Positions 2,930 to 30,624 of a stretch of 38,639 nt of DNA are shown here, piece by piece; within the stretch, counting starts at the first letter, position 1, and each line of letters begins with the position of its first letter. A model generated the notes under the pieces. The model made no database searches. It was not told the DNA's origin and saw only the letters and a program-made list of their open reading frames with translations. The translations under genes and the position numbers were made by a program. The DNA is from a virus (taxonomy: Duplodnaviria > Caudoviricetes), in the IMG/VR virus record IMGVR_UViG_3300005573_000172, positions 1 through 38,639 of that record; one strand, 5' to 3'.

Positions 2930-3219
2930 GCAAAATTCACAACTTGGTGGGCCGCGTATTTACTCGGCTAACCGTCCTGTCGCTGGCCGGCTACCGCGCC
3001 GCCCATGCGGTGTGGCACTGCCGTTGCGAGTGCGGGCGCGAAGTGGACGTGCGCGGCACGCATCTCGTGTCCGGGCGTGTGCGCTCCTGTGGCTGCCTGC
3101 GTGCAGACCCAGCCATTCGTGCAGCCGCCGCGTTGAGCATTCCGAAGCGCACCCGCCGCGAGCACGCGCGAGCCGCGGCGGCGGCCAGGTGGGCGGGCCA
3201 TCATTCACCCGCGCCGTAG
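2926..3219 (+). CDS. CxC..SCGC Zn-binding protein (HNH/AP2 homing-endonuclease N-terminal type, no nuclease domain)
   Basis: NLVGRVFTRLTV...WHCRCECG...L.SG..RSCGC followed by a basic RREHARAAAAARW tail. Confidence 0.8.
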   Translation: MSKIHNLVGRVFTRLTVLSLAGYRAAHAVWHCRCECGREVDVRGTHLVSGRVRSCGCLRADPAIRAAAALSIPKRTRREHARAAAAARWAGHHSPAP

Positions 3220-3620
3220 CGCGGCATATCGTCCAGGTCGGCTCTCCCGAGCTCATCGAAGTGGATCAGGGCCTGGATGTTGAACACGATCGCGGCCAGG
3301 TGATCCTCGTCCCGCCAGCCCATGGCATACTTGACTGCATGGCGCATTGCCGAGGCCCAGAGCGCGGAGAATGGCATGCCCTTCTCCCAGTTCCGATCTC
3401 CGTACTTCTGCGCACCCATGGCGAGCCAGCGCCCAACCCGGTACAACGCGAATGGCGAAATGAGATCGGGCCTCTCCTTATCGTTCGCACAGTCACGCAC
3501 CGCGCCGGTCGCAAACTCGCGCCGCTCGCCGGAATCCTTGAGCTCGAACGCCCGGTGCACCGGGCATGTTCTCGTCGTCTCATCGAAGCAGGTGCACCCG
3601 GTCTTCGCATCCGCTAACAT
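3201..3620 (-). CDS. dATP/dGTP diphosphohydrolase-domain (DUF5664-type) protein
   Basis: F.TGAVRD...K.RPDLISP.AL..V...L..GA.KYGDRNWEKG....SAMRH......DEDHLAA..FN motif. Confidence 0.88.
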   Translation of the reverse strand: MLADAKTGCTCFDETTRTCPVHRAFELKDSGERREFATGAVRDCANDKERPDLISPFALYRVGRWLAMGAQKYGDRNWEKGMPFSALWASAMRHAVKYAMGWRDEDHLAAIVFNIQALIHFDELGRADLDDMPRYGAGE

Positions 3621-3877
3621 GCTCTCCTCCTCGTCATCCTCTTCATTCGGTCTGGGTCGATTATCCTGATCTCAATCACGTTCGCCCGCGGGATCGTGAG
3701 CCAGAACCTTCCCTGCTCGCCGCCATGATCGAGTTCCATTGCGATCGTGAGACATTCCTCGTCCTGTTTCGCGAGCCAGCCGACCGACTCGAGCTCGATC
3801 GGGCCATGCACGTCGGCGATCGAACCGTCGGCGACCTGATAGTTCGCGTCCTTCCAGCGCACGATCGCGATCTTCAT
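3614..3877 (-). CDS. Conserved small phage protein (W.DA...SVGWL type, 87 aa)
   Basis: MKIAIVRWKDA...ESVGWL...TIPRANV; ATGA overlap with the upstream gene. Confidence 0.75.
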   Translation of the reverse strand: MKIAIVRWKDANYQVADGSIADVHGPIELESVGWLAKQDEECLTIAMELDHGGEQGRFWLTIPRANVIEIRIIDPDRMKRMTRRRAC

Positions 3878-4140
3878 TGCTTTTTCTCCGGAAGCCAGAA
3901 GCATTTCGTCAGTACGCGGTGGCCGCGCGCGTCCTGCGCCCACTTCTTTCCGGCCACCAGGACTCCCTTTGCGACCAGCGCTCGAAGTTGTTGTACGGCG
4001 GTGGTGTACCCCAATCCGTATCTCTGCACATAGTCCGAGGTTGTGAATGAGCGATCCGGGTAAGGATCCACCTCTCCGAGGACCTTCTCTCGGGCAGCGT
4101 CTACCTCGGCCCATGGCGATGATTTCGTCTGCTTGATCAT
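3874..4140 (-). CDS. Putative winged-HTH protein (88 aa)
   Basis: FTTSDYVQRYGLGYTTAVQQLRALVAKGVL wHTH pattern; ATGA-coupled on both sides. Confidence 0.65.
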   Translation of the reverse strand: MIKQTKSSPWAEVDAAREKVLGEVDPYPDRSFTTSDYVQRYGLGYTTAVQQLRALVAKGVLVAGKKWAQDARGHRVLTKCFWLPEKKQ

Positions 4141-4970
4141 CGCATCGTTACCTCCCAGTGTCCGTTTCTCTCCAGTATTATGCGCCCCATCATGGTGTCA
4201 CTCGGGCTCATCGCTGCCGTTTCCGCGTAGCTGTTCCAGTACTCAAGGAAGCTCGAGCTCATAATTCCAGCGATCTTCTGGAGCCGGATTTTCCCGCGGC
4301 TTCGAAGTTGGCGCCAATCGAAGAGCACCATGGCGTCGTGTAAATGGCCGACCATATAGCACGAGGAATCGGCTTGTGACATAAACCGGTGCAGCATCTG
4401 CGCCTTCGCGCCCTTGGTCCGTGCGGCGCCGCCCCCGTGCCAGACGCTCAGCCGGAATGGTTTGTGCTCGCCGTACCAAACGTCGAGCAACTGCACGCCT
4501 CGCGAGTATGGCACGCCAATCTGTTTCGCGATCAGTCGACCGACGTCGCCGAACGTCCGCATTGTCCTGCGCTCGTGGTTGCCTCCGACATACCCGAGGA
4601 GTCGGTGATCTTTGGCCAAGGGCGCAAGTAGCTCGACCACTTCCGCGACTTGGTCGATCGGCTCGCCGGTGTTCTCGTAGGGCGAGGCTACACTCAGCAC
4701 GGTCGCAGCGTCGATCAGGTCGCCACCGAGGATGGCGTAGCGATAATCGCACGAGAGGATCCACTCCATGTAGGCCCGGAATCGCGCAGCCATGAAATTC
4801 CGGTGTCCGTACTGTAGATCGGTAAGGTGGCTGATCTCGATGCGGTCCGCTTTGCTCCTGCGCAGATCGACACTTACCAGCTTGGTCTCGTCGCCCGCTT
4901 TGTGCAGGTCGGCAATCTGAGGGGCGAATGCGGCGACGCGGGCCTTGCTTACCTCCGACCAGTCGGTCAC
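4137..4970 (-). CDS. Calcineurin-like metallophosphoesterase
   Basis: Motifs TDLQYG, GGDLID, GNHE, WHG, GHLH in canonical order. Confidence 0.92.
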   Translation of the reverse strand: MTDWSEVSKARVAAFAPQIADLHKAGDETKLVSVDLRRSKADRIEISHLTDLQYGHRNFMAARFRAYMEWILSCDYRYAILGGDLIDAATVLSVASPYENTGEPIDQVAEVVELLAPLAKDHRLLGYVGGNHERRTMRTFGDVGRLIAKQIGVPYSRGVQLLDVWYGEHKPFRLSVWHGGGAARTKGAKAQMLHRFMSQADSSCYMVGHLHDAMVLFDWRQLRSRGKIRLQKIAGIMSSSFLEYWNSYAETAAMSPSDTMMGRIILERNGHWEVTMR

Positions 4971-5179
4971 TGCTCGGTGATCCCTTCCAGCCGGTCAATG
5001 CGTCGAAGTGTCTGATCATACTCGTGACGCCAGACGTAACGGCCGTTCAGTTCCTTGAGCAGGCGGAGCTCGAATGCCGCGAAGTCCGACCGGACCTTCG
5101 CCGCCAGAATGCCGACCAGCAGAGGGGCGGCCACTCCGACTGCGCTCACAACGATATTGATAATGTTTTGGATTTCCAT
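4967..5179 (-). CDS. Small membrane protein, holin-like (1 TM + coiled coil)
   Basis: N-terminal hydrophobic helix IINIVVSAVGVAAPLLVGILAA, charged tail RIDRLE; lies after the fibre genes. Confidence 0.6.
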   Translation of the reverse strand: MEIQNIINIVVSAVGVAAPLLVGILAAKVRSDFAAFELRLLKELNGRYVWRHEYDQTLRRIDRLEGITEQ

Positions 5180-5181
5180 TG

Positions 5182-6423
5182 TCAGGCCCCCGGGCAGCTC
5201 GAGCTCTTGGTGTTGTTCTGGATCACCGCTCCCTGCGGGGGGGAACTTTCGTAGACAATCGACTGGCAGGAACTGGAGCCGCAGAGGAAGTTGTTGCGGA
5301 CGGTGATGTTGGGGGCGGTGCCGATGGCGATGCCGGCGTAGAAGTAACCCTGGATGCTGTTGTTCTCCACCAGGGTGGTTTTGCCGCCGACTTCGATGCC
5401 GTAGCCGTAGCGGGAGCCGGAGCCGGCGGGAGGCTGGGCGATGAGGGTGTTGCCGCGGATGGTGGTGTTGGAGCCGCCGTCGACCACGATGGAGAGGCCG
5501 AAGGTGTTCCAGAAGGGGTTGATGAAGTTTTCGAAGCGGTTGTTTTCGACCAGGAGGCCCTGGGTGTTGGCGCCTTGCATCTCGATGCCCATGCGGTGGA
5601 CGCGGGTGCCCTGGTTGCCGCTGATGACGATCTGGTCGTAGGGGCCGGCGCCGTCGAATTGCAGGGAGATGGCCTGGTTGACGAGGTCGAAGGTATTGTT
5701 GGTGATGGAGACGTTGCGAATGCGCCAGCCTTGGATGGCGTTGGCGTTGCAGTCGACGTAATCGGTTTTGCCGCCTTCCAGGATGTTGGAGAAGCGGTTG
5801 CTGGAGATGGTGGAGTTCTGCATGCCGGCGGGGAGGAAGATGGCGTTGTGGACGGTCCAGTTGCCGCTGGCGTTGGTGATGTTCTGGAAGGTGCAGTTGG
5901 TGATGCGGATGTTGTCGGCGGCGCCGGTGGAGCCATCAAAGCTGATGCCGGCGGCGTCGAAGGTAAGGCCGTCGATCGTCATGTTGCGGGCGCTGTTGTA
6001 GGGGGCGACGGCGAGGAAGTAGCCGGCGGGGCCGAGCAGGACGGCGCCGGGAGCGCCCTGGTAGGTGCGGTCGGAGAGGAAGTTGAGGGTGCGGGTGACG
6101 CGGTAGTTCCCGGCGGGGAAAGAGACGGTGCCGCCGGCGGGGGTGGCATTGATGGCGTTTTGGATGGCGGTAGTGTCGTCAGTGCTGCCGTTTCCGGTTG
6201 CGCCATAGTCTTTCACGCTTTTTGGGGTCGAAGTCGGAGCGGGAGTCGCGGGCGTGATCGCGCTCAGTGTGGCCTTGCCGTCTTGGATCGTCAGCGCCAA
6301 ACCGGATCCGATTTGCGCGAGGTAGGCGCTTCCATCTGGTGTCACAACGACCACCGTTCCCGCGGTCTGCGCCATCAGCATTGCCGACGTCAGAGCCAAA
6401 GCAACCAGGGCTATCTTCTTCAT
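5182..6423 (-). CDS. Signal-peptide-bearing right-handed beta-helix protein (pectate-lyase/tailspike-like depolymerase)
   Basis: MKKIALVALALTSAMLMA|Q leader; SVKDYGATGNGSTDDTTAIQNAIN...FPAGNY cap; Asn-ladder repeats (I.NN.F). Confidence 0.88.
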   Translation of the reverse strand: MKKIALVALALTSAMLMAQTAGTVVVVTPDGSAYLAQIGSGLALTIQDGKATLSAITPATPAPTSTPKSVKDYGATGNGSTDDTTAIQNAINATPAGGTVSFPAGNYRVTRTLNFLSDRTYQGAPGAVLLGPAGYFLAVAPYNSARNMTIDGLTFDAAGISFDGSTGAADNIRITNCTFQNITNASGNWTVHNAIFLPAGMQNSTISSNRFSNILEGGKTDYVDCNANAIQGWRIRNVSITNNTFDLVNQAISLQFDGAGPYDQIVISGNQGTRVHRMGIEMQGANTQGLLVENNRFENFINPFWNTFGLSIVVDGGSNTTIRGNTLIAQPPAGSGSRYGYGIEVGGKTTLVENNSIQGYFYAGIAIGTAPNITVRNNFLCGSSSCQSIVYESSPPQGAVIQNNTKSSSCPGA

Positions 6424-7028
6424 TTAGAAACCTCCAAATATTTACCGCCGGGACTCTCTGTTGTTCGGATGCCGGCGGTAAGCGCCCGAACGTCCACAAA
6501 TTGGTATGCGATTGTTGCGCTGACTTCCACGTGCACGGGCTTGCCGGTATCGTTGAGCCAGGAGGCGATTTTGACGACCAGGACGTTATCTTCTTCGAGC
6601 AATCCTCCCGCCGACAGATCGGCGCCGAATGGCGCCCGGCGCGGAAGCCCCCGGGAAACTGCGTCCTGGATATAAAGCATGGTATTGTCGGCGATCAGAT
6701 CCGCGCGCGCACTGCCTTCCGGTGCTGTCGTCTGAAATCCAAGTAGCACGCCAGCATAGGTATCCTCGGGCGCGCCGCGTACCCAAGCGACCAGATCTCC
6801 GTGAGCACGCAGGATTCTTACGCGGCAGCCCGACGGAGGAGCGAATGTGATCTTCCAGATTGCAACGTCTGCCGTGCCCCACGTTCCCGACCGCGTGTCT
6901 TTCGCACCGTACAAATCGTACGCAAAGTTGAATGCCCCGGACAACGGCCTGGAATCGCATTTCTCTGCGCCGATCAGCGGCGTCAACGAGAGAACAACGA
7001 GCGCGATAAAAAGGCTGGTTCGTTTCAT
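6420..7028 (-). CDS. Secreted hypothetical protein (202 aa)
   Basis: MKRTSLFIALVVLSLTPLIGA leader; ATGA coupling on both sides; GAGG RBS. Confidence 0.8.
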   Translation of the reverse strand: MKRTSLFIALVVLSLTPLIGAEKCDSRPLSGAFNFAYDLYGAKDTRSGTWGTADVAIWKITFAPPSGCRVRILRAHGDLVAWVRGAPEDTYAGVLLGFQTTAPEGSARADLIADNTMLYIQDAVSRGLPRRAPFGADLSAGGLLEEDNVLVVKIASWLNDTGKPVHVEVSATIAYQFVDVRALTAGIRTTESPGGKYLEVSK

Positions 7029-7333
7029 AACGGCCTCAACCACCTCAGCACGCGTATCCTCGCCACTGTGGGCGGGGGCAGAACGATCATGGTCCCGGTC
7101 GCGATTGCCGTGCTGGACCCGGCACTAAGTCCGGAAGCGAGAACAACCTGCGGAATCCAGGCCGTACCGGAGAGCACAGCCGCGCCCACCGCCGATCCCT
7201 GTGCACCGTAACGACAAGCCGCGGTTGCGGACGCGGTCCCCTGGCCCGTCGATGCACCGGATATGCTGTTGGTACTTGGGGGCTCTCCGCCGAACAGCGA
7301 TTCGTTGAAGAGCGATTCGTTGAATGTCGGCAC
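7025..7333 (-). CDS. Minor virion/fibre-associated protein (102 aa)
   Basis: FNESLFNESLFGG N-terminal motif and G/S/T/A beta-repeats typical of phage fibre genes; GTG start. Confidence 0.6.
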   Translation of the reverse strand: MPTFNESLFNESLFGGEPPSTNSISGASTGQGTASATAACRYGAQGSAVGAAVLSGTAWIPQVVLASGLSAGSSTAIATGTMIVLPPPTVARIRVLRWLRPL

Positions 7334-7353
7334 GCAACAGTCCTATCGGAGCT

Positions 7354-9957
7354 CTAGTATCGACTCAGCCCGGTGCGTTGTATCTCAAACTTATCAACCT
7401 GCATATACTTTCCTGCCGTCGTGTCTGTGGCAATCATGACTGCCGGAGTAAGTGCGGCTGTAGGAACATTTGTGTTGATTGTGGTTTCACTGCTACATGC
7501 GTTCAGACAGAACGCCCACGTTCCGGTTGCTGTTCCTCTCATACGAACCCGGTAGTAGGTCATTGTTGCTGGAGTTACCCCGGATGAGGTGGTCGTGCAT
7601 GTGCCAGAAGCGCAGGTCTGATACATGAATGCGGTATCCCCAGCGTTTGTGTCGAATCGCAATCCGACGAAGTTGGACGGCGTGATCGTGTTGGCCTGAT
7701 CGGCTAACCCGACCCTGATTCGTATGTTTGTGTTGGAGTACTCAAGCGCGAATATGTACTCAACCTGCCATAAATAATTCGTGTTTGGATTCGCTATTTG
7801 CCCAGTAGGGTACTCGTAGAAACCGGTACCCTGTCCCACTGAAGACCCGGTTCCAAGCCGCGCTGTGCATATATTCTTGGCGTCTCCTGTGTTTGCGGCA
7901 GCGATGGCAGACCCTCCTCCAATTCCTGCGGTTCCCCATCTGGTCTGTGTTCCAATAGCGACCGCAGCGTCCGTGGTTCCACAAAACTCCTCTACCTCGT
8001 GGAACACGGTATGATCGAAATAACTTACCCCTCCCCCGCTTCCGCACGCCGCGCTGGTTCCATTCACCAGCACGCAATTCGTATCGCTGCCGCTAACGGC
8101 AACCACATTACCACTTGAATCCGCAGCGAGAGCCTTCGACGCTGCATAACCCGAACCCTTGAATGGCACAGAGGCGCTGTCGACGATAAACTGATTGCCG
8201 GTCTGGGTAAGTCCCGTGCCGGCGGAGTAAACCGAATTGGATTGGAACGCGCGATAATCCAGCCCGCCACCGGAGTCCCAAGCTCCGCTCACCGCGTCGA
8301 TGCGCCAGAGCGGAATCACGTCCGCTGGCCATGTGGTCACCCCACTCACCGCAGTACAATGCGAGTCACAGGCCAGAGTGACGTTGTGCCCTACCGTCAG
8401 CACGCCGGCAGACGTGACATAGACATACGCCGTCCCAGTCCCCGACGTGAGCGTCACTACCGCGCTCGCCGTGATTCTGGTGGTGGTCGAGCCAAAGCGG
8501 ATATTGCACGGCGTACTGGCCGAGCACGCCGGGCCAATCGTCAACTGGGTAGCGCTATCCCTCCGGACCGTCAAATCGCCCAGTGCGGATGCCATCGTGG
8601 CGCCGGAACCGGACACGGTTCCGGGTTGCCACTGGCTGTTCGACGCGCTCCACACAAGGGCCTGCGCATCGCTCGGGGCAGTGCTGGCGACGGCCCGGCC
8701 CTGGAGCTTGCCGACCGTCGTGCTCGCAATGTCACCTGTCACGTCCCCGCCCAGGGTGTGGGTGTGCGACGTGGCGGCCTTCCCGTTCAACTGGGTCTGA
8801 ATGTCGCTCACGACATTGGCGAGATAGCCGAAGACCGTGTTGCTGACCGTCCCGCTACCAATCTTCGTCGCATCCACCCCGGAGGCGATCTGGCTGTTGG
8901 CCACCGTTCCGGAGATCTGGCTGAAGGAGTAGTCTCCGGTCTGGGCGACTACCGCGCCGGTCCGGCCAAACACGCTGGTAACCGCCCCGGAGCCGCCGCA
9001 GGCAGCACTTGTCCCGTTGACGAGCACACAGTCTGTGGCATTACCGGATACTGCAACCAGGTCCCCGTTGGCGTTCGTTGCGATGGCCTTGGAGGCCGCG
9101 TAGCCTGCGCCCTTGAAGGGCACGGAGGCGCTGTCCACGGTGATCTGGTCCCCGGTCATCGACAGGCCCACGCCGGTCGTAATGACCCGGTTGGCGAGGA
9201 ATGCCCGGAAGTCCAGCCCGCCGCCAGTGTCCCAAGCTCCGCTCACCGCGTCGATGCGCCAGAGCGGAATCACGTCCGCCGGCCACGTGGTTACCCCGCT
9301 GACCGCAGTACAATGCGAGTCACAGGCCAGAGTGACGTTGTGCCCTACCGTCAGCACGCCGGCAGACGTGACATAGACATACGCCGTCCCGGTCCCCGAC
9401 GTGAGCGTCACTACCGCGTTTGTCGTGATTCGGGTAGTCGTCGAGCCAAAGCGGATATTGCAGGGTTTGGCGGTTGAGCAGGCCGGGCCAATCGTCAGTT
9501 GAGTGGCACTATCCCTTCGCACTATCAAATCGCCCAGTGCAGCCGCCATCGGGCTTCCGATGTTGCTCTCAATTGCCTTGATCTCTGCGGCAAGCTGGTT
9601 GTGATGCCAGGCGACTATATTACCGCGCACCTGTGCGCCGTTGCTGTGCGTAGCGGCTGTTGTGCCTCCGAAGCCTCGGCCACCAGAGCAGACGTTCAGG
9701 GTGTTCGCGTTCACCGAGCAGATCAGAATCTGCTCCTGATCGATCGTCACTACTTCATATCCGGTGAACTTGGTTCCATCGGCAACAGGAATCGCGGTAT
9801 CTCCGGCCCCGATTCCAGCCGTGAGCGTCGACGACGACAGATCCTTGCCCACCAGAAGATCCTGATCAGTTGCGACCGACGTGGGGAATTTCGCCGTGTT
9901 CGGGTTCTGGGCCAAAGCGCAGAGAGAGAAGCCGATCAAAAATGCAAGTGTGCGCAT
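7354..9957 (-). CDS. Fibre-like protein with signal peptide, internal duplication and paired cysteines (867 aa)
   Basis: MRTLAFLIGFSLCALA|Q leader; RGFGGTTAATH..GA.V and HHNQLAAEIKAIE..IG virion-fibre motifs; VTSVFGRTGAV fibre repeat; C-terminal beta-sandwich-like domain. Confidence 0.85.
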   Translation of the reverse strand: MRTLAFLIGFSLCALAQNPNTAKFPTSVATDQDLLVGKDLSSSTLTAGIGAGDTAIPVADGTKFTGYEVVTIDQEQILICSVNANTLNVCSGGRGFGGTTAATHSNGAQVRGNIVAWHHNQLAAEIKAIESNIGSPMAAALGDLIVRRDSATQLTIGPACSTAKPCNIRFGSTTTRITTNAVVTLTSGTGTAYVYVTSAGVLTVGHNVTLACDSHCTAVSGVTTWPADVIPLWRIDAVSGAWDTGGGLDFRAFLANRVITTGVGLSMTGDQITVDSASVPFKGAGYAASKAIATNANGDLVAVSGNATDCVLVNGTSAACGGSGAVTSVFGRTGAVVAQTGDYSFSQISGTVANSQIASGVDATKIGSGTVSNTVFGYLANVVSDIQTQLNGKAATSHTHTLGGDVTGDIASTTVGKLQGRAVASTAPSDAQALVWSASNSQWQPGTVSGSGATMASALGDLTVRRDSATQLTIGPACSASTPCNIRFGSTTTRITASAVVTLTSGTGTAYVYVTSAGVLTVGHNVTLACDSHCTAVSGVTTWPADVIPLWRIDAVSGAWDSGGGLDYRAFQSNSVYSAGTGLTQTGNQFIVDSASVPFKGSGYAASKALAADSSGNVVAVSGSDTNCVLVNGTSAACGSGGGVSYFDHTVFHEVEEFCGTTDAAVAIGTQTRWGTAGIGGGSAIAAANTGDAKNICTARLGTGSSVGQGTGFYEYPTGQIANPNTNYLWQVEYIFALEYSNTNIRIRVGLADQANTITPSNFVGLRFDTNAGDTAFMYQTCASGTCTTTSSGVTPATMTYYRVRMRGTATGTWAFCLNACSSETTINTNVPTAALTPAVMIATDTTAGKYMQVDKFEIQRTGLSRY
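8042..9540. repeat. Intragenic direct repeat: ~545-bp units at 8042..8586 and 8996..9540
   Basis: Constant 954-bp offset; 89 bp identical (8348..8436 = 9302..9390); other differences mostly synonymous. Confidence 0.93.
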
Positions 9958-10340
9958 CAGTCCTCCGTCACCGTCAGTTGCCCGGTTGGAAATTTGATCT
10001 GATCACCAGAGTTTACTTGCTTGCTGGCCGTGAGGTTTCCAAAGTAGAGCAAGTTTCCGGCTGTCAGCGCGTCGTACAGTCCGAAACCGACTACCGTCCC
10101 CCAGTTCGCTGTTGCCTGCGGGAACGTAACATCCGCGCTGTTGGTCATGCTTCCGGAGCTTGGCGCGCCGAAAGTCACCGCAGTGCGCGCGTAACTGCCT
10201 CCCGACACCTCAACTCCGCCGGATCCGTTGTCGGCTGGCAGCGTGGTGAATAGTGCGACGTATACGTTCGCTACGGCAAGCGAAACGTTCCTCAGCGTGT
10301 TGAGTACGAGATTCTCGTAATAGTCGCTCTTGCCGGCCAT
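9957..10340 (-). CDS. Conserved virion protein found next to fibre genes (127 aa)
   Basis: SDYYEN..LN...YVALFT..P...G.EVSGGSYAR..V.F...N...V.FP.AT..WG.V..FG.YDA.T.GN.L pattern. Confidence 0.8.
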   Translation of the reverse strand: MAGKSDYYENLVLNTLRNVSLAVANVYVALFTTLPADNGSGGVEVSGGSYARTAVTFGAPSSGSMTNSADVTFPQATANWGTVVGFGLYDALTAGNLLYFGNLTASKQVNSGDQIKFPTGQLTVTED

Positions 10341-10341
10341 C

Positions 10342-10620
10342 TCAGTTTGTCCTTACGATCGGACGCGTCAGGCGCTCGAGTTCTGCGTGCTTTTCCTGAA
10401 TCGCGCGCTGGGCCGCTTGCATTTCCGGCGTCGGGTCCTGCTGAAGGTGCTGCGCGAAATTCGCGCTCAAGATCTGAGCCACCAGGTCAGCCAGCGTTGG
10501 AAACATAGGCTCGATGATAGTTACTCCATCCTCCCGCACCACCGGAGGCTTGGTCATCCGCGCGCAGACGCGCTTCAGCCGTTCTGCCACGGCGTCATCA
10601 ATTTCGATCGTGATCGTCAT
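10342..10620 (-). CDS. Hypothetical protein, possible fibre/tail-tip chaperone
   Basis: Directly follows the tail-tip gene; helical; AGGA-type RBS. Confidence 0.65.
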   Translation of the reverse strand: MTITIEIDDAVAERLKRVCARMTKPPVVREDGVTIIEPMFPTLADLVAQILSANFAQHLQQDPTPEMQAAQRAIQEKHAELERLTRPIVRTN

Positions 10621-10635
10621 GCTTCTCTTTCCTCT

Positions 10636-13600
10636 CTATGTCTTGCCGGTGTACACTCCACCGTAGAACCACAAGTACCCGGTAGACTGATCTGGCTTCA
10701 GATAGGGAACAGATTCGGTTGCGCCGTACCGCCATGCGCCGCTGTAGTAGGTATTGAACCCTGCTCCGCCTACCCCGTAGCTGGGACAACTTACTCCGTG
10801 GCCGACGAATGCGGAACTGGAATCGATTGCCTGAATGCTGTTAACCTTTAATTCCCGGACGAAATTGGCTCCTCCAGCGGTGATATGGCCTCTCCAGTAC
10901 CCGCTGCCGTAGTAGTCTCCAAACAGTTCGATTCCAGAAGTTCCCGACACATCGCTCAGAGTAATCGCACCGCCATTCCCAGATCCGAGGCACCTCAGCG
11001 AAATGCTTGACCCAGAACCGTTGCTCCGCATGTATATTTGCGGAGCGTAGCCCGAAATTCCAATGTTCACGCGGTTGCTCGACGCATCATATACCTGAAG
11101 CCCGGCTGGCCACCCGTCTGGACTGCCGTTGTCGATCTTGGTGGTGATTCCGTTTGTCGCGAGCGTGAATGTGGCGCCGCCGATGGAGACGTTCCCGCTC
11201 GAGTCTGCGATGAGCTTCGCATCCGCGGCGCTGGTTCCACCCACACGGAATTGCTTGAACCAGGCGCCTTCGTAGCCGCTCTCGACTCCGATAAATCCGA
11301 TCTGTTGCCCCGACGCATTGTACACAGCGAATTTGCCAGGCTTTCCGCCTCCACCACCCACGTTGATAACCGTCGCGTCCAGCTTCGCACTGGATACCGA
11401 CCCGGCGGAGATTTCATTGGCGGCAACCGCATTCGCTGCGATCTTTCCGGCGATAACCGCGTTCGCCGCGATCAGATCCGACGTGATGGCCAGCGCCTGT
11501 ATTTTCGGAGTGCTGATCGAATTGTTGGCGATCTTCGTCTCGGTGATCGCGCCAGTGTTGATCTTTATCTCCGTTACGCCCGACGGGGAGATGTCGAACA
11601 CTCCGCCGACGTTCGCAAAGGTTGCGGCGACCGAAGCGCCCAGGAACTTCCGCAAATCGAGCTGCCCCGCCGCGCTGCCCACGATAATATCTTGATGCGG
11701 TGTTACCGACCACAGCGGGATATTGGCTCTGTTATTGACATCGAAGCTGACAGCATAGACGCTGTATGTCTGAGCGAATGCCTTCGCGGACAGCTCGAAC
11801 GTAACCGGAGACTTCTGCGTGCTCGCGCGAGTGGTGAAAGTATATCCTCCATCCTCGCTCACCCGAAGTTCAACGCCGCCCCATGTCGGATCTGACGGCG
11901 GCGTGAATGAGCTGGTGATGAGCGCGACGTAGGTTCCATCAGCGGTGGCGGGATACGAAACGGAGACGGAGAACCCGGTCACATTTGATGTGTACTCGGA
12001 GCCCGCCGGTCCGAGCTGTGGAGATGGCAGGACCACCGTGGACGATGGAGTTATTCCGGCCTGATAAGTGTTACGCCGGTTGTTGGTGTCGACGCTGAGC
12101 GCGTAGAATGTGACGCTGGAGGCCGTCGATGGGAAATAGGACGTCTCCCATTTCAGCGACGTTCCGCGCTCAAGCCCCGTGAGTTGAAACGTGTTACCGT
12201 CGTACCAATCAACGAATATCACTACTCCGCCAAAGCGGACGTCGGCCGGGTTTGTCCAGGAGAGATTCACCCGCAGGACCTTCTGCCCGTCGGCATTCAC
12301 CGCGTAGGCCGGCGTGGCAACCACAGCGCTGAATCCGGTAACTACCTCGCAATATTCTTTTCCGGTGGTTCCACCGAGGCGAGAGATTGTTACCTCTGCC
12401 ATCGGAGTTGTGCCGGGCACGATGGCCGCCACCGTTCCATCGCCGAAAATTGGAGTGGCGTAGATCTGAACGACCTTCGTGGCCTCGGGCAATGGCCAGG
12501 CGTCGGTGCGGAACGTGGTGGCGCCTTCGCCCTCGTCGGCGAGCGGAATATCCTGCGCTCCCCACCCTCGCATGATGATGCGAACCCCCTTGTAGCGAGG
12601 AATGGGCGCATTGGTCCAGGAGCCGACGAGGCGGAACATCTGATCGCCGCTCTCGGTGGTCTCGATCACGACAGAAGCAGAGAAGCCGGAGACATAATCT
12701 GACTTCGCGAGCGTCTGGAGATCGACAGCGACCCCGGCGGGATTACCGTTCACGTCAGTGTTTGGAGTTCCGAATCGGTTCAGGCTTACAGCGATGATTG
12801 ACCATGTCTCGGGCGGATCGGGCACGCTTTCGGGTGCAATCGCGATAGTGTCGTAATGAAACCTCGCGTCGCCCGATTGATCGAACATTGTCGAGTCAAT
12901 CGTGTCGGTGGCCTTCGCGTACTTGAAGCCAGAACCGTCGGGAGATTTGATCCAGATCTGTACTCCGCCCCAATTCGACGTGTCGGACGGCAGCATGCAC
13001 GCCCAGTCGATCAGCATCATCTGCCGGCGACTGTCCCAGTACATGGTGGAATCGAACGTGCCATCGCCGTTCGATTTGCCTGCCTTGAACATCACGACAT
13101 TGGGGGCCGACTCGAAGTAGGGTTCTCCGGGCACGGGCTCGGCGACCACATCCGCCGGCTTTGGGCCGATCGCGAGATCGTACATTGAGTCCGTGGTCGT
13201 GCGGCCTTGGATGTCGATCGAGTAGTCCTTGTTCAGGCGCCAGGAAGTGACGCGGAACTCGCCACTGCCGCCGGGCATGTCCGGGTGCGTCATCGAGCAG
13301 ACCATGCCGGGTTCGGTATTCAGCGCCAGCGCAGTCGTCTTGAATGATATCTGGCGCGCCGCCTTCCATTCGGCCGGCGTGATACCGCCGAGCTCCTCGC
13401 GCAGGCGTACGGTAATAATGCGGGCTGCCTGAGATTTGGAGGCCGTACCCGATAGATTGACGGTGGACTTCAGAAATAGCGGCCCGGCGCCGCCACCCAG
13501 AAGCGCGGCGTGGTCGATGTCGTAGAGCGAGATCGAGTTCGCTACGAAGTCGAAATCCTCATCGGCGAAGTTGGCCGTCAGATGGTTGAACGAGGGTTTC

Positions 13601-15492
13601 AGCGTCGCAAGCTCGAGGCTGCGGAAGAGGATGTTGCCCTCGGTGAAGGCTTCGACCGAGGACGAGTTGATGCGGATACCAAGCTTCAGTTTGCCATTCG
13701 CGAACGTGTAATAGCCCAGGCAGTTCATCAGCACTTCCTGGAGCCAGTCGCGAAGGGGTTTCTCCTCTTGAAGCACGCCGCGAAACTTGAACTGGGTCTC
13801 GGTGCCCGTGCCGACGAGCTTGGTAACCTGCTGGTCGCAGATCGCCGAGGCCATCGTAATCGCGCTATCGACGTCGAAATACTGCTCACAGGTTGCCGCA
13901 TCCGCGAATTGCAAGCCGCGCGCGCGGAGCAGCATATTGACCGCAATCCAGATCGGATTGATCAGCGCGCCCCATGTACGCACCCCGGGAGCGCTCCACA
14001 TCCAGCCGCTCATGCCCACCGACACCACTGCCTGCATCTGATGCTCGGTGAGCCGGGAAGGCTGAAAGCCCTTCGCGTCGGTACGGCGAATCTCGATGAA
14101 GGCGGTCCCCGCAGCGCGTTCCGGTCCCCACACCTGGGGCGTCCCCTCGCCCAGGGAAAACGAGTCCGGGTTGGGGTCATTGCCTAGGCTTGTGCGCAGA
14201 CCCAGATCGCCCGGCCCGTGATTGGGCTGGTTATCTAGCAGGTGACCCGACCCGTACGATCCGAGCGGGCCTGCACCCACAATGCCCAGCGCATCGTAGA
14301 ATTCGCTCTCCTCGCGGCCGGCGGCAATCTTGCAGTTCACCGGCATGGGCGAGTCAGTGTAGATCTCCGGCAGAACCTGATCGTAAATCGAGTCGGCCAC
14401 GAGCGAGACGCTTGTGATTGGAGAGCGCCCGAAACCCCAGGTGCCAGTGGAATTGTCCTTGATACGCACACCCTGGGGCTGGGCAACGATTCCGCCAAAG
14501 TAATTGTCCATGCCGTGCGTACGGCAGCCGTTGGGCGTATCGAAGCCCTTGTCGCAAGAGGTGTCAGATCCGACGTAGGGGCAAGCTGGCCCCTTGAACT
14601 GCTTCCAGCACGTGCGGGAGATCTTGCGGGTGGGATACGGCAGGTTCAATTCGTACAGGCCGTCGGCGGCGGTGACTTTGAACTCCGGGCCAGCGTCGCA
14701 AGACCAATTGACGAGGTCGCCCTTCCAGAGATCGAGCTTGATGCCGGTTCCGACATGGAAGAGCGAGAGGCTGATCGCCGCGCGGTACAGGTCGACGTCA
14801 TTAGCGAGCGCGCGCATAACGCGGTCTGCGTTGCCGAAGGTGAATTGCGCCTCGTCGGCTTCATTGCCGATGGACTGCGAGATGCCGTCGAACTCGAGCA
14901 GCCGCGCCTGATAGAGTTGGCCGCCAACGGTGCAGCGGCGATCCGAAACGTAGATTGCCGGGTAGCCCGACTCGAGCGGCTGGATGCGGACGAGCGGAAT
15001 GATCTCCTGAACCTGCGAGAGAAGCGCGGTCTGAAGCGCGGTGGGCGGGAAGCGATTCGCTGTCTGGTTGAGCGTGTAGGTGGGCGAGGAGGAGGGAATC
15101 TCGATGAGCGTCACGCCGAGCGAGCAGGCCCAGTCCGCGACCATTTCCCAGGACAGCGGCTCGTTGGCGAAGCGGCAAACGTAGGGCGTGGTCCCGTTAC
15201 CGTCGTCATTCGGCGCGTTGTAAGTGAACGCCCCGTAAGGGCCGTAACTCGTCTCCCAGAAGTTGCACAAGGCAGTGCGGTCGGAATCGCGCAAGAAGGC
15301 CCGGCGCACGGTGAAGCGCTTGGCGCCCGTCCCCAGGAGATAACGCTGCTCAATCTTCGCGTTGCCCGAGCCGAACTGGTGGATCACCACCTCAGGAGCG
15401 CTGGCGCGACCGTACCCGTAATCGGGAACGATGGGAAACGTCCCGCTTGGCGCGATCTCTGAAACCGCAATATTGCCGATGTAGTCAGACAT
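10636..15492 (-). CDS. Tail tip/central fibre protein (gpM-like + gpL-like + gpJ/Tal-like multidomain, 1618 aa)
   Basis: Downstream of TMP and Dit; four-Cys cluster CWKQFKGPAC...SCDK...NGC; FN3-like repeats; IT..KI.A.AI beta-repeats; variable C-terminus. Confidence 0.88.
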   Translation of the reverse strand: MSDYIGNIAVSEIAPSGTFPIVPDYGYGRASAPEVVIHQFGSGNAKIEQRYLLGTGAKRFTVRRAFLRDSDRTALCNFWETSYGPYGAFTYNAPNDDGNGTTPYVCRFANEPLSWEMVADWACSLGVTLIEIPSSSPTYTLNQTANRFPPTALQTALLSQVQEIIPLVRIQPLESGYPAIYVSDRRCTVGGQLYQARLLEFDGISQSIGNEADEAQFTFGNADRVMRALANDVDLYRAAISLSLFHVGTGIKLDLWKGDLVNWSCDAGPEFKVTAADGLYELNLPYPTRKISRTCWKQFKGPACPYVGSDTSCDKGFDTPNGCRTHGMDNYFGGIVAQPQGVRIKDNSTGTWGFGRSPITSVSLVADSIYDQVLPEIYTDSPMPVNCKIAAGREESEFYDALGIVGAGPLGSYGSGHLLDNQPNHGPGDLGLRTSLGNDPNPDSFSLGEGTPQVWGPERAAGTAFIEIRRTDAKGFQPSRLTEHQMQAVVSVGMSGWMWSAPGVRTWGALINPIWIAVNMLLRARGLQFADAATCEQYFDVDSAITMASAICDQQVTKLVGTGTETQFKFRGVLQEEKPLRDWLQEVLMNCLGYYTFANGKLKLGIRINSSSVEAFTEGNILFRSLELATLKPSFNHLTANFADEDFDFVANSISLYDIDHAALLGGGAGPLFLKSTVNLSGTASKSQAARIITVRLREELGGITPAEWKAARQISFKTTALALNTEPGMVCSMTHPDMPGGSGEFRVTSWRLNKDYSIDIQGRTTTDSMYDLAIGPKPADVVAEPVPGEPYFESAPNVVMFKAGKSNGDGTFDSTMYWDSRRQMMLIDWACMLPSDTSNWGGVQIWIKSPDGSGFKYAKATDTIDSTMFDQSGDARFHYDTIAIAPESVPDPPETWSIIAVSLNRFGTPNTDVNGNPAGVAVDLQTLAKSDYVSGFSASVVIETTESGDQMFRLVGSWTNAPIPRYKGVRIIMRGWGAQDIPLADEGEGATTFRTDAWPLPEATKVVQIYATPIFGDGTVAAIVPGTTPMAEVTISRLGGTTGKEYCEVVTGFSAVVATPAYAVNADGQKVLRVNLSWTNPADVRFGGVVIFVDWYDGNTFQLTGLERGTSLKWETSYFPSTASSVTFYALSVDTNNRRNTYQAGITPSSTVVLPSPQLGPAGSEYTSNVTGFSVSVSYPATADGTYVALITSSFTPPSDPTWGGVELRVSEDGGYTFTTRASTQKSPVTFELSAKAFAQTYSVYAVSFDVNNRANIPLWSVTPHQDIIVGSAAGQLDLRKFLGASVAATFANVGGVFDISPSGVTEIKINTGAITETKIANNSISTPKIQALAITSDLIAANAVIAGKIAANAVAANEISAGSVSSAKLDATVINVGGGGGKPGKFAVYNASGQQIGFIGVESGYEGAWFKQFRVGGTSAADAKLIADSSGNVSIGGATFTLATNGITTKIDNGSPDGWPAGLQVYDASSNRVNIGISGYAPQIYMRSNGSGSSISLRCLGSGNGGAITLSDVSGTSGIELFGDYYGSGYWRGHITAGGANFVRELKVNSIQAIDSSSAFVGHGVSCPSYGVGGAGFNTYYSGAWRYGATESVPYLKPDQSTGYLWFYGGVYTGKT

Positions 15493-30152: not shown

Positions 30153-30269
30153 CCATGGATCGCGCACTTCCTCTGCGACAACGCTGGCCTCGAGCAGCGA
30201 GCGCTCGTCCCGGGTAAGCTGTCGCATGTACTTGCGCAGCTCTGGTTCGATGCAGATTGGTGTGCTCAT
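30153..30269 (-). pseudogene. ParB-like N-terminal remnant
   Basis: IEPELRKYMRQLTRDERSLLEASVVAEEVRDP resembles ParB-N starts, then similarity is lost before any DG.NR motif. Confidence 0.5.
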
Positions 30270-30466
30270 TTCTTGATGTAGGGCGCCTCGGCCGGCGTGC
30301 CGTCGGGATTGGCGAAGTGCGCCAGGACTCCGGTGGCGCCCTGAACCGCCGAGAGACCGACGAGTGCCCAGAACCTACCACGCGGAGGCAGGACGGGTAC
30401 AGTGGCATTGAGACACTGCATGATAAGCATCAGCGTCTGCGTGACTGCATTGGTATTGACAGTCAT
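30266..30466 (-). CDS. Holin-like two-TM protein (66 aa)
   Basis: Two hydrophobic helices, C-terminal NPDGTPA..PY; ATGA coupling. Confidence 0.6.
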   Translation of the reverse strand: MTVNTNAVTQTLMLIMQCLNATVPVLPPRGRFWALVGLSAVQGATGVLAHFANPDGTPAEAPYIKK

Positions 30467-30624
30467 TTCTTCTCCACTTGCTGGGCAATCCCGGCCCAAA
30501 TCGGGGACACGAATGCAGCCCAATCTTGCCATGCCTTCTGGCGTACCTCGACGGGCTGATCACCGTAGATCAAGTTGAAGGTCTTCAGGCCCTCAAGCAC
30601 AATCTGTAGAATCAGCAAAGTCAT
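30463..30624 (-). CDS. Small amphipathic protein (53 aa, not in the ORF track)
   Basis: MTLLILQIVLEGLKTFNLIYGDQPVEVRQKAWQDWAAFVSPIWAGIAQQVEKK; GGAGG RBS; ATGA-coupled. Confidence 0.7.
   Translation of the reverse strand: MTLLILQIVLEGLKTFNLIYGDQPVEVRQKAWQDWAAFVSPIWAGIAQQVEKK

Follow-up and report, generated by a model that had tools for sequence, protein, structure and literature searches.

Candidate Sec-exported tail fibres and a predicted peptide docking site in the late operon of a siphophage with a likely Acidobacteriota host

The window analysed here is a whole virus record of 38,639 nucleotides (nt; IMGVR_UViG_3300005573_000172) and represents a complete circular genome, the ends of the record overlapping. 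Its tail-fibre locus (5182..9957, minus strand) contains four consecutive genes encoding, in the direction of reading, proteins of 867, 102, 202 and 413 amino acids (aa), and it is preceded by a gene for a 127-aa protein. The initial annotation had assigned Sec leaders to the 867-, 202- and 413-aa proteins and proposed that these are exported, mature in the periplasm and dock at lysis onto the leaderless 127-aa and 102-aa proteins. The evidence presented here supports such a route for the 867-aa protein, a candidate fibre, and points to the N-terminus of the 102-aa protein as its docking site.

Leaders were called with a rule of our own on the n-, h- and c-regions (basic n, hydrophobic h, small residues at -3/-1). 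Among the 49 called genes it was positive for exactly the three expected ones, which confirms the leader assignment; its false positives were 133 of 8200 shuffled N-termini (1.6%) and 16 of 2311 internal positions. By this sequence rule all three proteins are likely substrates of the Sec pathway and signal peptidase I (SPI), and neither a lipobox nor a twin-arginine motif was seen in the three leaders by inspection. The 867-aa gene starts at ATG 9957. The 202-aa gene starts at ATG 7028 (not at the upstream GTG 7043) and its 21-aa leader is predicted to be cut between A and E, while in the 413-aa protein, with its start at ATG 6423, the predicted cut lies between A and Q. All three are co-oriented with the late operon and, as described earlier, tightly packed: each has a GGAG/GAGG site at its start and overlaps the preceding gene. 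A scan of 3000-11000 yielded 2 promoter-like sites (2.0 expected), none within the locus, and 4 terminator-like sites (5.8 expected), one of them on the coding strand inside the 102-aa gene.

Leader conservation was followed in homologues of the domain directly behind the leader of the 867-aa protein, here called the anchor. In set 1, 171 full-domain matches were reduced to 105 at <90% identity, leaving out three loci identical to the window and three others (L003-L005), which were dropped as anchor homologues because they are capsid proteins sharing the beta-barrel only. Set 2, which partly overlaps set 1, contains 84 homologues from 135 of the 150 listed matches. A leader is present in 59 of the 105 members of set 1 (52 by the strict rule, 7 relabelled by eye) and in 75/84 of set 2, and leaders also occur in relatives of the 202-aa and 413-aa proteins. 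The 46 leaderless members of set 1 are in exact register with the mature protein: 41 start at most 4 residues from the mature end, many with MPNPN or MANPN where the window has QNPN, and the other 5 have non-hydrophobic N-terminal extensions. Glutamine stands at +1 in the 867-aa and 413-aa proteins and in 49 of the 52 strict homologues (the rule itself favours Q), and glutamate in the 202-aa protein. A Q-rule, by which Gln at +1 is cyclised by a glutaminyl cyclase of the host, has been described for Bacteroidetes, and the accessible part of that paper does not mention Acidobacteria (PMC5837995).

The cysteines follow the leader. The mature 867-aa chain has 20, arranged as 10 neighbouring pairs, of which Cys80-Cys90 (mature Cys64 and Cys74) lies in the anchor. 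In set 1 both of these residues occur together in 41/59 leader-bearing proteins (48/59 with a slip of one column allowed) versus 0/46 leaderless ones, and in set 2 in 66/75 versus 0/9. Even cysteine counts are a mark of disulfide-bonded exported proteins; among complete loci they were found in 18 of 23 leader-bearing and 12 of 32 leaderless homologues. The export interpretation is thus supported by the leader, its conservation, the register of the leaderless homologues and the paired cysteines. Leader-bearing anchors occur in siphophages, P22-like podophages and one baseplate-J prophage, and the slot between P22-type adaptors and nozzle may hold a leader-bearing (L022, L068) or a leaderless version (L035, L054, L056).

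The anchor was modelled with a predicted local distance difference test score (pLDDT) of 86.7. It matches the resolved N-terminal part of the tail fibre of Ralstonia phage GP4 (AXG67771; 8jov_1, 18 copies in the portal-tail complex) with a Z of 11.0 and a root-mean-square deviation of 1.7 A over 95 aligned residues, a match that spans the barrel plus the helix (model 19-116). A profile of the anchor family gave E-values of 1.3e-6 and 1.2e-3 with two GP4 fibre genes in a search among 10 proteins only, and a sequence search of solved structures with the 867-aa protein gave no match. From the model, the anchor is predicted to have the GP4-type tail-fibre virion anchor fold. The capsid proteins of L003-L005, which are major-capsid-like, contain this barrel as an inserted domain, like the VP1 capsid match.

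Of the fibre hallmarks named by the initial annotation, the coiled-coil motif HHNQLAAEIKAIE is present and conserved. VTSVFGRTGAV, reported as a repeat, was found as a single copy (residues 326-336 of the 867-aa protein). The shaft-like G.GL motif, said to be common to the 867-aa and 413-aa proteins, does occur twice in the former because a module there is duplicated (residues ~137-323 at ~455-641), but the copy in the 413-aa protein has longer spacing and is only a loose match. The C-terminal domain has no Pfam or PHROG match of its own; one of the viral clusters it matches carries PF22237 (SO2946-like_C) on 37% of its members, SO2946 being a trimeric sugar-binding jelly roll. No Pfam match to a YadA-type membrane anchor, as in trimeric autotransporters, was found in the 867-aa protein, and its C-terminus resembles viral SO2946-like domains. 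In other sequencing runs, mosaic pieces of the 867-aa gene (window 7354-9560) appear with differing flanks, which suggests module shuffling among relatives.

The 102-aa protein has small-residue repeats and no family match, and it opens with a triple pentad, that is, three aromatic residues five apart. In 14/47 loci the gene that directly follows the anchor gene begins with a pentad, versus 4/395 among genes that follow other genes, by a rule shaped after examples had been seen; 3 of the 4 control pentads look like true instances nearby. These loci are both leader-bearing (6/19) and leaderless (8/28). An earlier, looser motif count was noisy (49/1331 near, 31/2129 far) and was replaced by the stricter tests. 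Pentads are carried by rope-like proteins, by head-tail adaptor-like proteins (L022, L035) or inside hub-like proteins; most T4-like loci have none, nor do ten GP4 tail-region proteins. At L010:8782-12425, three leader-bearing anchor paralogues stand in tandem and a 385-aa protein downstream of them has two triple pentads.

Binding of this peptide was assessed by complex prediction. For three anchors combined with the first 35 residues of the 102-aa protein the score was 0.93, and for the best of 3 controls 0.02; in calibration the mark was reached by 116/157 solved pairs and 2/215 mismatched pairs. Contact agreement between runs was at least 83% and the partner, which alone was scored, had a pLDDT of at least 60, while the three anchor copies modelled with the peptide reached 96-97. 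Partner residues 1-16 contact all three anchor copies, and the residues predicted to hold them are 21-26, 55, 60 and 95-103 in mature numbering; lineages that have the pentad are not clearly set apart by their groove residues from those that lack it. The mature anchor trimer is accordingly modelled as binding the N-terminal peptide with one pentad per subunit. Docking onto the flanking leaderless proteins, as first proposed, is therefore supported for the 102-aa protein by co-location of the motif and by the controlled complex prediction. The 127-aa protein is more likely threaded on the 102-aa protein than bound to the fibre: in GP4 and A1002, dimers of its gp80 type are strung along a rope protein, according to the part of PMC13730344 available. 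The 102-aa protein would then act as a short rope, with the fibre captured at its free end. In addition, phrog_19041 is common to a pentad-bearing protein of L050 (E 0.003) and the GP4 gene adjoining gp80 (E 1.7e-26).

Table 1. Features of the tail-fibre locus and the adjoining genes in window coordinates
Feature	Position	Strand	Basis and remarks
413-aa leader-bearing protein	5182..6423	-	18-aa leader, ~50-aa segment absent from homologues, beta-helix from residue 69
Beta-helix-coding DNA	5238..6219	-	Codon use aberrant; contigs with different flanks match at 99% identity
202-aa leader-bearing single jelly roll	6420..7028	-	Leader rule, model
102-aa leaderless protein	7025..7333	-	Triple pentad at the N-terminus, rope-like middle rich in G/A/S/T, C-terminus basic and conserved
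Triple aromatic pentad, residues 1-16 of 102-aa protein	7286..7333	-	FNESL-FNESL-FGG; predicted docking peptide
867-aa fibre gene	7354..9957	-	Leader, anchor, two duplicated beta-rich modules, shaft-like motifs, C-terminal lectin-like head
C-terminal domain, likely receptor-binding head	7354..8025	-	Features 0.97 to viral clusters
Duplicated module copy 2, residues ~455-641	8035..8595	-	Internal repeat of copy 1
Duplicated module copy 1, residues ~137-323	8989..9549	-	954-nt spacing, 70% over 300 nt
Anchor domain, residues 17-132	9562..9909	-	Arm, beta-barrel, HHN helix; GP4 tail-fibre N-terminus fold (predicted)
Sec/SPI-type leader, 16 aa	9910..9957	-	Predicted cut between ALA and Q
127-aa leaderless GP4 gp80-type chain-fibre unit	9957..10340	-	PF23140 E 1.9e-41; 8jou_a E 7.3e-8
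1618-aa hub/tip, C-terminal fibre-like part	10636..15492	-	Leaderless; possible primary receptor-binding device

These results suggest the following route. The 867-aa protein would be exported by the host Sec system and its leader cleaved before Gln17, which may then be turned to pyroglutamate, and the mature protein would fold in the periplasm as a disulfide-bonded trimer. Meanwhile the 102-aa protein would serve as a cytoplasmic rope, threaded by the 127-aa gp80-type dimers and tied to the tail, so that particles released from the cytoplasm would present bare peptide tips able to capture fibres. When lysis mixes the two compartments, the anchor trimer would grip residues 1-16 of the 102-aa protein and the fibre would join the particle. 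That an exported, disulfide-folded fibre trimer docks in this way on a cytoplasmic triple-pentad tag is considered probable. Its sequence-level basis is the leader and its conservation, the register, the paired cysteines, the gene order, the pentad and its co-location, whereas the fold, the trimer and the binding are predictions; export is argued by the conserved leader, the register and the cysteines, and docking by pentad co-location together with the complex prediction.

Several observations count against this route. The share of leaders is inflated, as 11 of the 14 query rows bear one, and the cysteine pair is missing in 11/59 leader-bearing rows. On the tree the leader state changes at least 11 times (4 changes are forced by strong branches), and with 4 independent pairs the cysteine-leader link is not significant (p 0.25). 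In the fold comparison a capsid insertion domain, 9in6_M, tied for the top match (Z 11.1). The beta-barrel alone is a common repeat, although the barrel-plus-helix span is what fits GP4, and the family profile found no GP4 chain when run against the whole PDB. The next gene has no pentad in 33/47 loci. The complex job differs from its calibration (a trimer, with alignments of its own) and may draw on a similar solved complex, and the presence of the 102-aa protein on the particle is itself deduced. Sister loci point the same way: 79 were found by the hub, 37 of them with 3 kb downstream, and just 4/37 have a leader-bearing gene of at least 150 aa among the next six genes, while many carry a leaderless distant homologue instead. 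The 1618-aa tip of the window has no leader and may alone suffice for adsorption. For this phage, the route is read from sequence and models.

The other two leader-bearing proteins are very probably exported as well, judging from their sequences, but their presence on the particle is at best about as likely as not: the proposal that the exported adhesins dock onto the virion is supported for the 867-aa protein and so far unsupported for these two. The 202-aa protein was modelled with a pLDDT of 96 and matches ssDNA (single-stranded DNA) capsids (Z 10.4), TNF-type proteins (Z 9.0), cement proteins (Z 8.0-8.1) and XepA (Z 8.0). A family assignment was dropped, as many jelly rolls match alike and Atlas matches stay <0.9. 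Of its homologues, 15/30 are positive by the strict leader rule, and the N-termini of most of the rest look hydrophobic by eye; in 3 viral loci the homologue follows large tail-region genes.

The tailspike-like beta-helix of the 413-aa protein was verified by PF12708, PF13229 and phrog_2234, and no recognised head-binding domain was found in this protein. Several of its top matches have leaders directly before the beta-helix. No relative of residues 20-60 was found among 17,250 open reading frames (ORFs) and proteins, and a likeness to two leader-bearing proteins of L138 and L139 was seen by eye only. After codon 70 about 80% of codons end in C. Contigs of three other runs match 5238-6050 or 5238-6217 at 99% identity and then continue into unlike sequence, one such flank containing an in-frame hydrophobic leader-like stretch (read by hand). 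A beta-helix homologue with 65% DNA identity has its own leader and lies among non-phage genes. Because of the codon shift, the 99% copies with unlike flanks and this non-phage homologue, the beta-helix was likely captured recently from the gene of a secreted bacterial enzyme and now follows a phage leader and a segment of 50 residues; no near-identical donor was found in 401 genomes of one order (best 65%). The 413-aa protein may equally well be a free polysaccharide-degrading enzyme released at lysis.

This last point belongs to a wider alternative, in which the proteins are exported but never sit on particles and act as decoys or as receptor-masking or capsule-stripping factors, with the anchor retained as a trimerisation domain. 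The resemblance of the beta-helix to leader-bearing bacterial secreted enzymes and its recently captured DNA would agree with this, as would the generic jelly roll of the 202-aa protein and the many sister phages without a leader-bearing fibre in the slot. A parallel exists in the Bdellovibrio MAT fibres, secreted phage-like trimers that work without a virion (PMC10769870, in its accessible part). Against this, the pentad partner is kept beside leader-bearing anchors and occurs also on adaptor-like core proteins, and the anchor-peptide complex prediction passes. The genes are also part of the late operon, where the locus shows no promoter-like site, and Cellulophaga phage phi10:1 (see below) offers a precedent for leader-bearing structural proteins, even if its proteins are non-homologous and could be co-purified. 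Export without virion attachment is therefore regarded as unlikely.

Two further alternatives concern the compartment. Exported fibres might meet the particles before the burst, either via holin lesions or while tethered by their leaders at the inner membrane in an envelope-linked assembly. No endolysin was recognised by family scans of the proteins of this complete genome, so release may be atypical, and the tested lysis-type genes of sister phages have no tblastn relative in the window; the conserved basic end of the 102-aa protein could also fit early joining. However, signal peptidase I cleaves on the periplasmic face, and we know of no way back to the cytoplasm for a folded, disulfide-bonded trimer. 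The only lysis-like candidates in the window are a 70-aa holin-like gene at 4967-5179, directly after the locus, and two small hydrophobic genes at 30266-30624, and sister phages carry a holin (PF05105). This makes early joining very unlikely. The least probable alternative is a cytoplasmic virion form, arising from a second start codon before Gln17 or from an unused leader. The window does have a TTG two codons before the cut, and the leaderless homologues prove that the domain can fold in the cytoplasm, but only 7/27 leader-bearing loci have a start codon near the cut, 1/27 has a ribosome-binding site before it (that of the window has none), and cysteine pairing tracks the leader. Docking of the periplasmic trimer at lysis remains the preferred reading.

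The cytoplasm is assumed to be where tailed-phage particles are completed. If true, a Sec-routed fibre would add a second assembly compartment and give access to disulfides, export would keep adhesins and glycosidases away from assembly, and host secreted enzymes could be recruited as appendages. The pentad, if real, would be a compact trimer-capture tag; the interface predicted here comprises just one domain of 116 aa and a peptide of 16 residues and can be tested without culturing the phage. Opinion is evenly balanced on a broader generalisation: that Acidobacteriota tailed phages of all three tail types use two-compartment host-recognition gear, in which periplasmic disulfide-locked trimers attach at lysis to a 15-residue triple-pentad tag, a portable element that evolution has transferred among ropes, adaptors and hubs. 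Host secreted enzymes could then be captured in the periplasm as ready appendages, and fibres could be exchanged in the lysate between co-infecting phages or prophages.

By gene content the phage is a siphophage. Its minus-strand late genes encode a terminase, a lambda-type portal, a protease-capsid fusion, a tail tube, a 1058-aa protein in the tape-measure position, a distal-tail-like protein and the 1618-aa hub/tip. A leaderless 92-aa gene without a family match (window 10342-10620) is kept directly after the hub in several phages with the locus. A dATP/dGTP diphosphohydrolase-like gene (PF18909) lies at 3201-3620, and no modified-base pathway was recognised elsewhere in the genome. The host is likely a member of Acidobacteriota, because of anchor matches in named genomes and named relatives of the 413-aa protein: two of three such anchor matches are in Acidobacteria assemblies (the third lies on a contig of 10 kb with the label Mycobacterium), and two of the close homologues found for the 413-aa protein carry the name Bryobacteraceae. 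At E 1e-15 the anchor is present in 3/401 genomes of the class sampled. No cultured phage, the Tunturi phages included, was found to carry the anchor, the hub or the 202-aa protein.

Other leader-bearing genes were seen in related loci. Some sister loci have them upstream of the hub instead; in one sister siphophage (L139:347-6400) six or seven consecutive leader-bearing late genes precede the distal-tail gene, and L138 has part of this array. A second leader-bearing family of 199-724 aa lies between the distal-tail gene and the hub (L200:9382-9996, L162:7804-9978 and 7 more loci), and the members tested have no Pfam or PHROG match. In a P22-like prophage a leader-bearing 402-aa gene follows the coat gene (L068:6391-7599) and perhaps encodes an exported decoration protein. 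The hub also occurs in a large uniform sister group (L189:15348-21037 and many of L131-L209), together with a TIM-barrel_NCTSP protein of 1270 aa and an anchor homologue of 622 aa that has no leader. Variable inserts on the reverse strand follow the hub there; the group may be a prophage family or a domesticated cluster.

To our knowledge, tailed-phage fibres normally fold in the cytoplasm and lack signal peptides. No description of Sec-exported tail fibres was found in the titles and abstract openings of the literature searched, most subscription papers and supplements being outside its reach. The parts of the present system have known folds, while the export route and the peptide tag appear undescribed in that literature. 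The accessible main text on the Tunturi phages does not contain the term 'signal peptide' (PMC11924767). The phage proteins known to take the Sec route serve in lysis or in the envelope, or belong to an extruded virion; tailed-phage fibres with an anchor domain are not among them. Inovirus coat proteins use the host Sec pathway and their virion is extruded non-lytically. The lysis factors include fOg44 Lys44, SAR endolysins and the T4 antiholin RI (PMC6116005, accessible part), and Porphyromonas phages encode Q-rule proteins described as of unknown function in the available part of PMC10367356. The phage-like fibres that Bdellovibrio secretes (PMC10769870, as far as available) are bacterial surface adhesins, unlike the virion fibre proposed here.

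The closest cultured parallel for the leaders is phi10:1 (KC821618), a siphovirus which, like the window, has Sec-type leaders and Q at +1 on tail-end genes. Its gp091-gp094 are annotated as structural by tandem mass spectrometry (MS/MS). The leader rule is positive for each of them and for gp095, with Q at +1, and negative for the other 17 of the 22 genes tested. Unlike the window, phi10:1 has no anchor homology, 0-2 cysteines and a Bacteroidota host, and no pentad was seen in the first 40 residues of gp090 and gp091-gp094. Its leaders were not found mentioned in the literature searched, which did not extend to the phi10:1 proteomics paper or supplements. Because phi10:1 is cultured, the route could be tested in it directly by N-terminal proteomics.

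For the anchor, the closest parallel is GP4. The anchor fold predicted for the window is that of the GP4 tail fibre (8jov chain 1), with a weak sequence link, and the window has a gp80-type neighbour comparable to GP4 fibre I, where gp80 dimers sit on a rope protein (8jou). The GP4 fibre reportedly docks on the nozzle. GP4 fibre genes have no leader and 0-1 cysteines, whereas the fibre of the window has a 16-aa leader and 20 mature cysteines. P22-type tailspikes are likewise cytoplasmic and leaderless, and share the tailspike-like beta-helix with the 413-aa protein. They are trimeric, are added last and can attach to finished heads in vitro, and late docking is therefore feasible.

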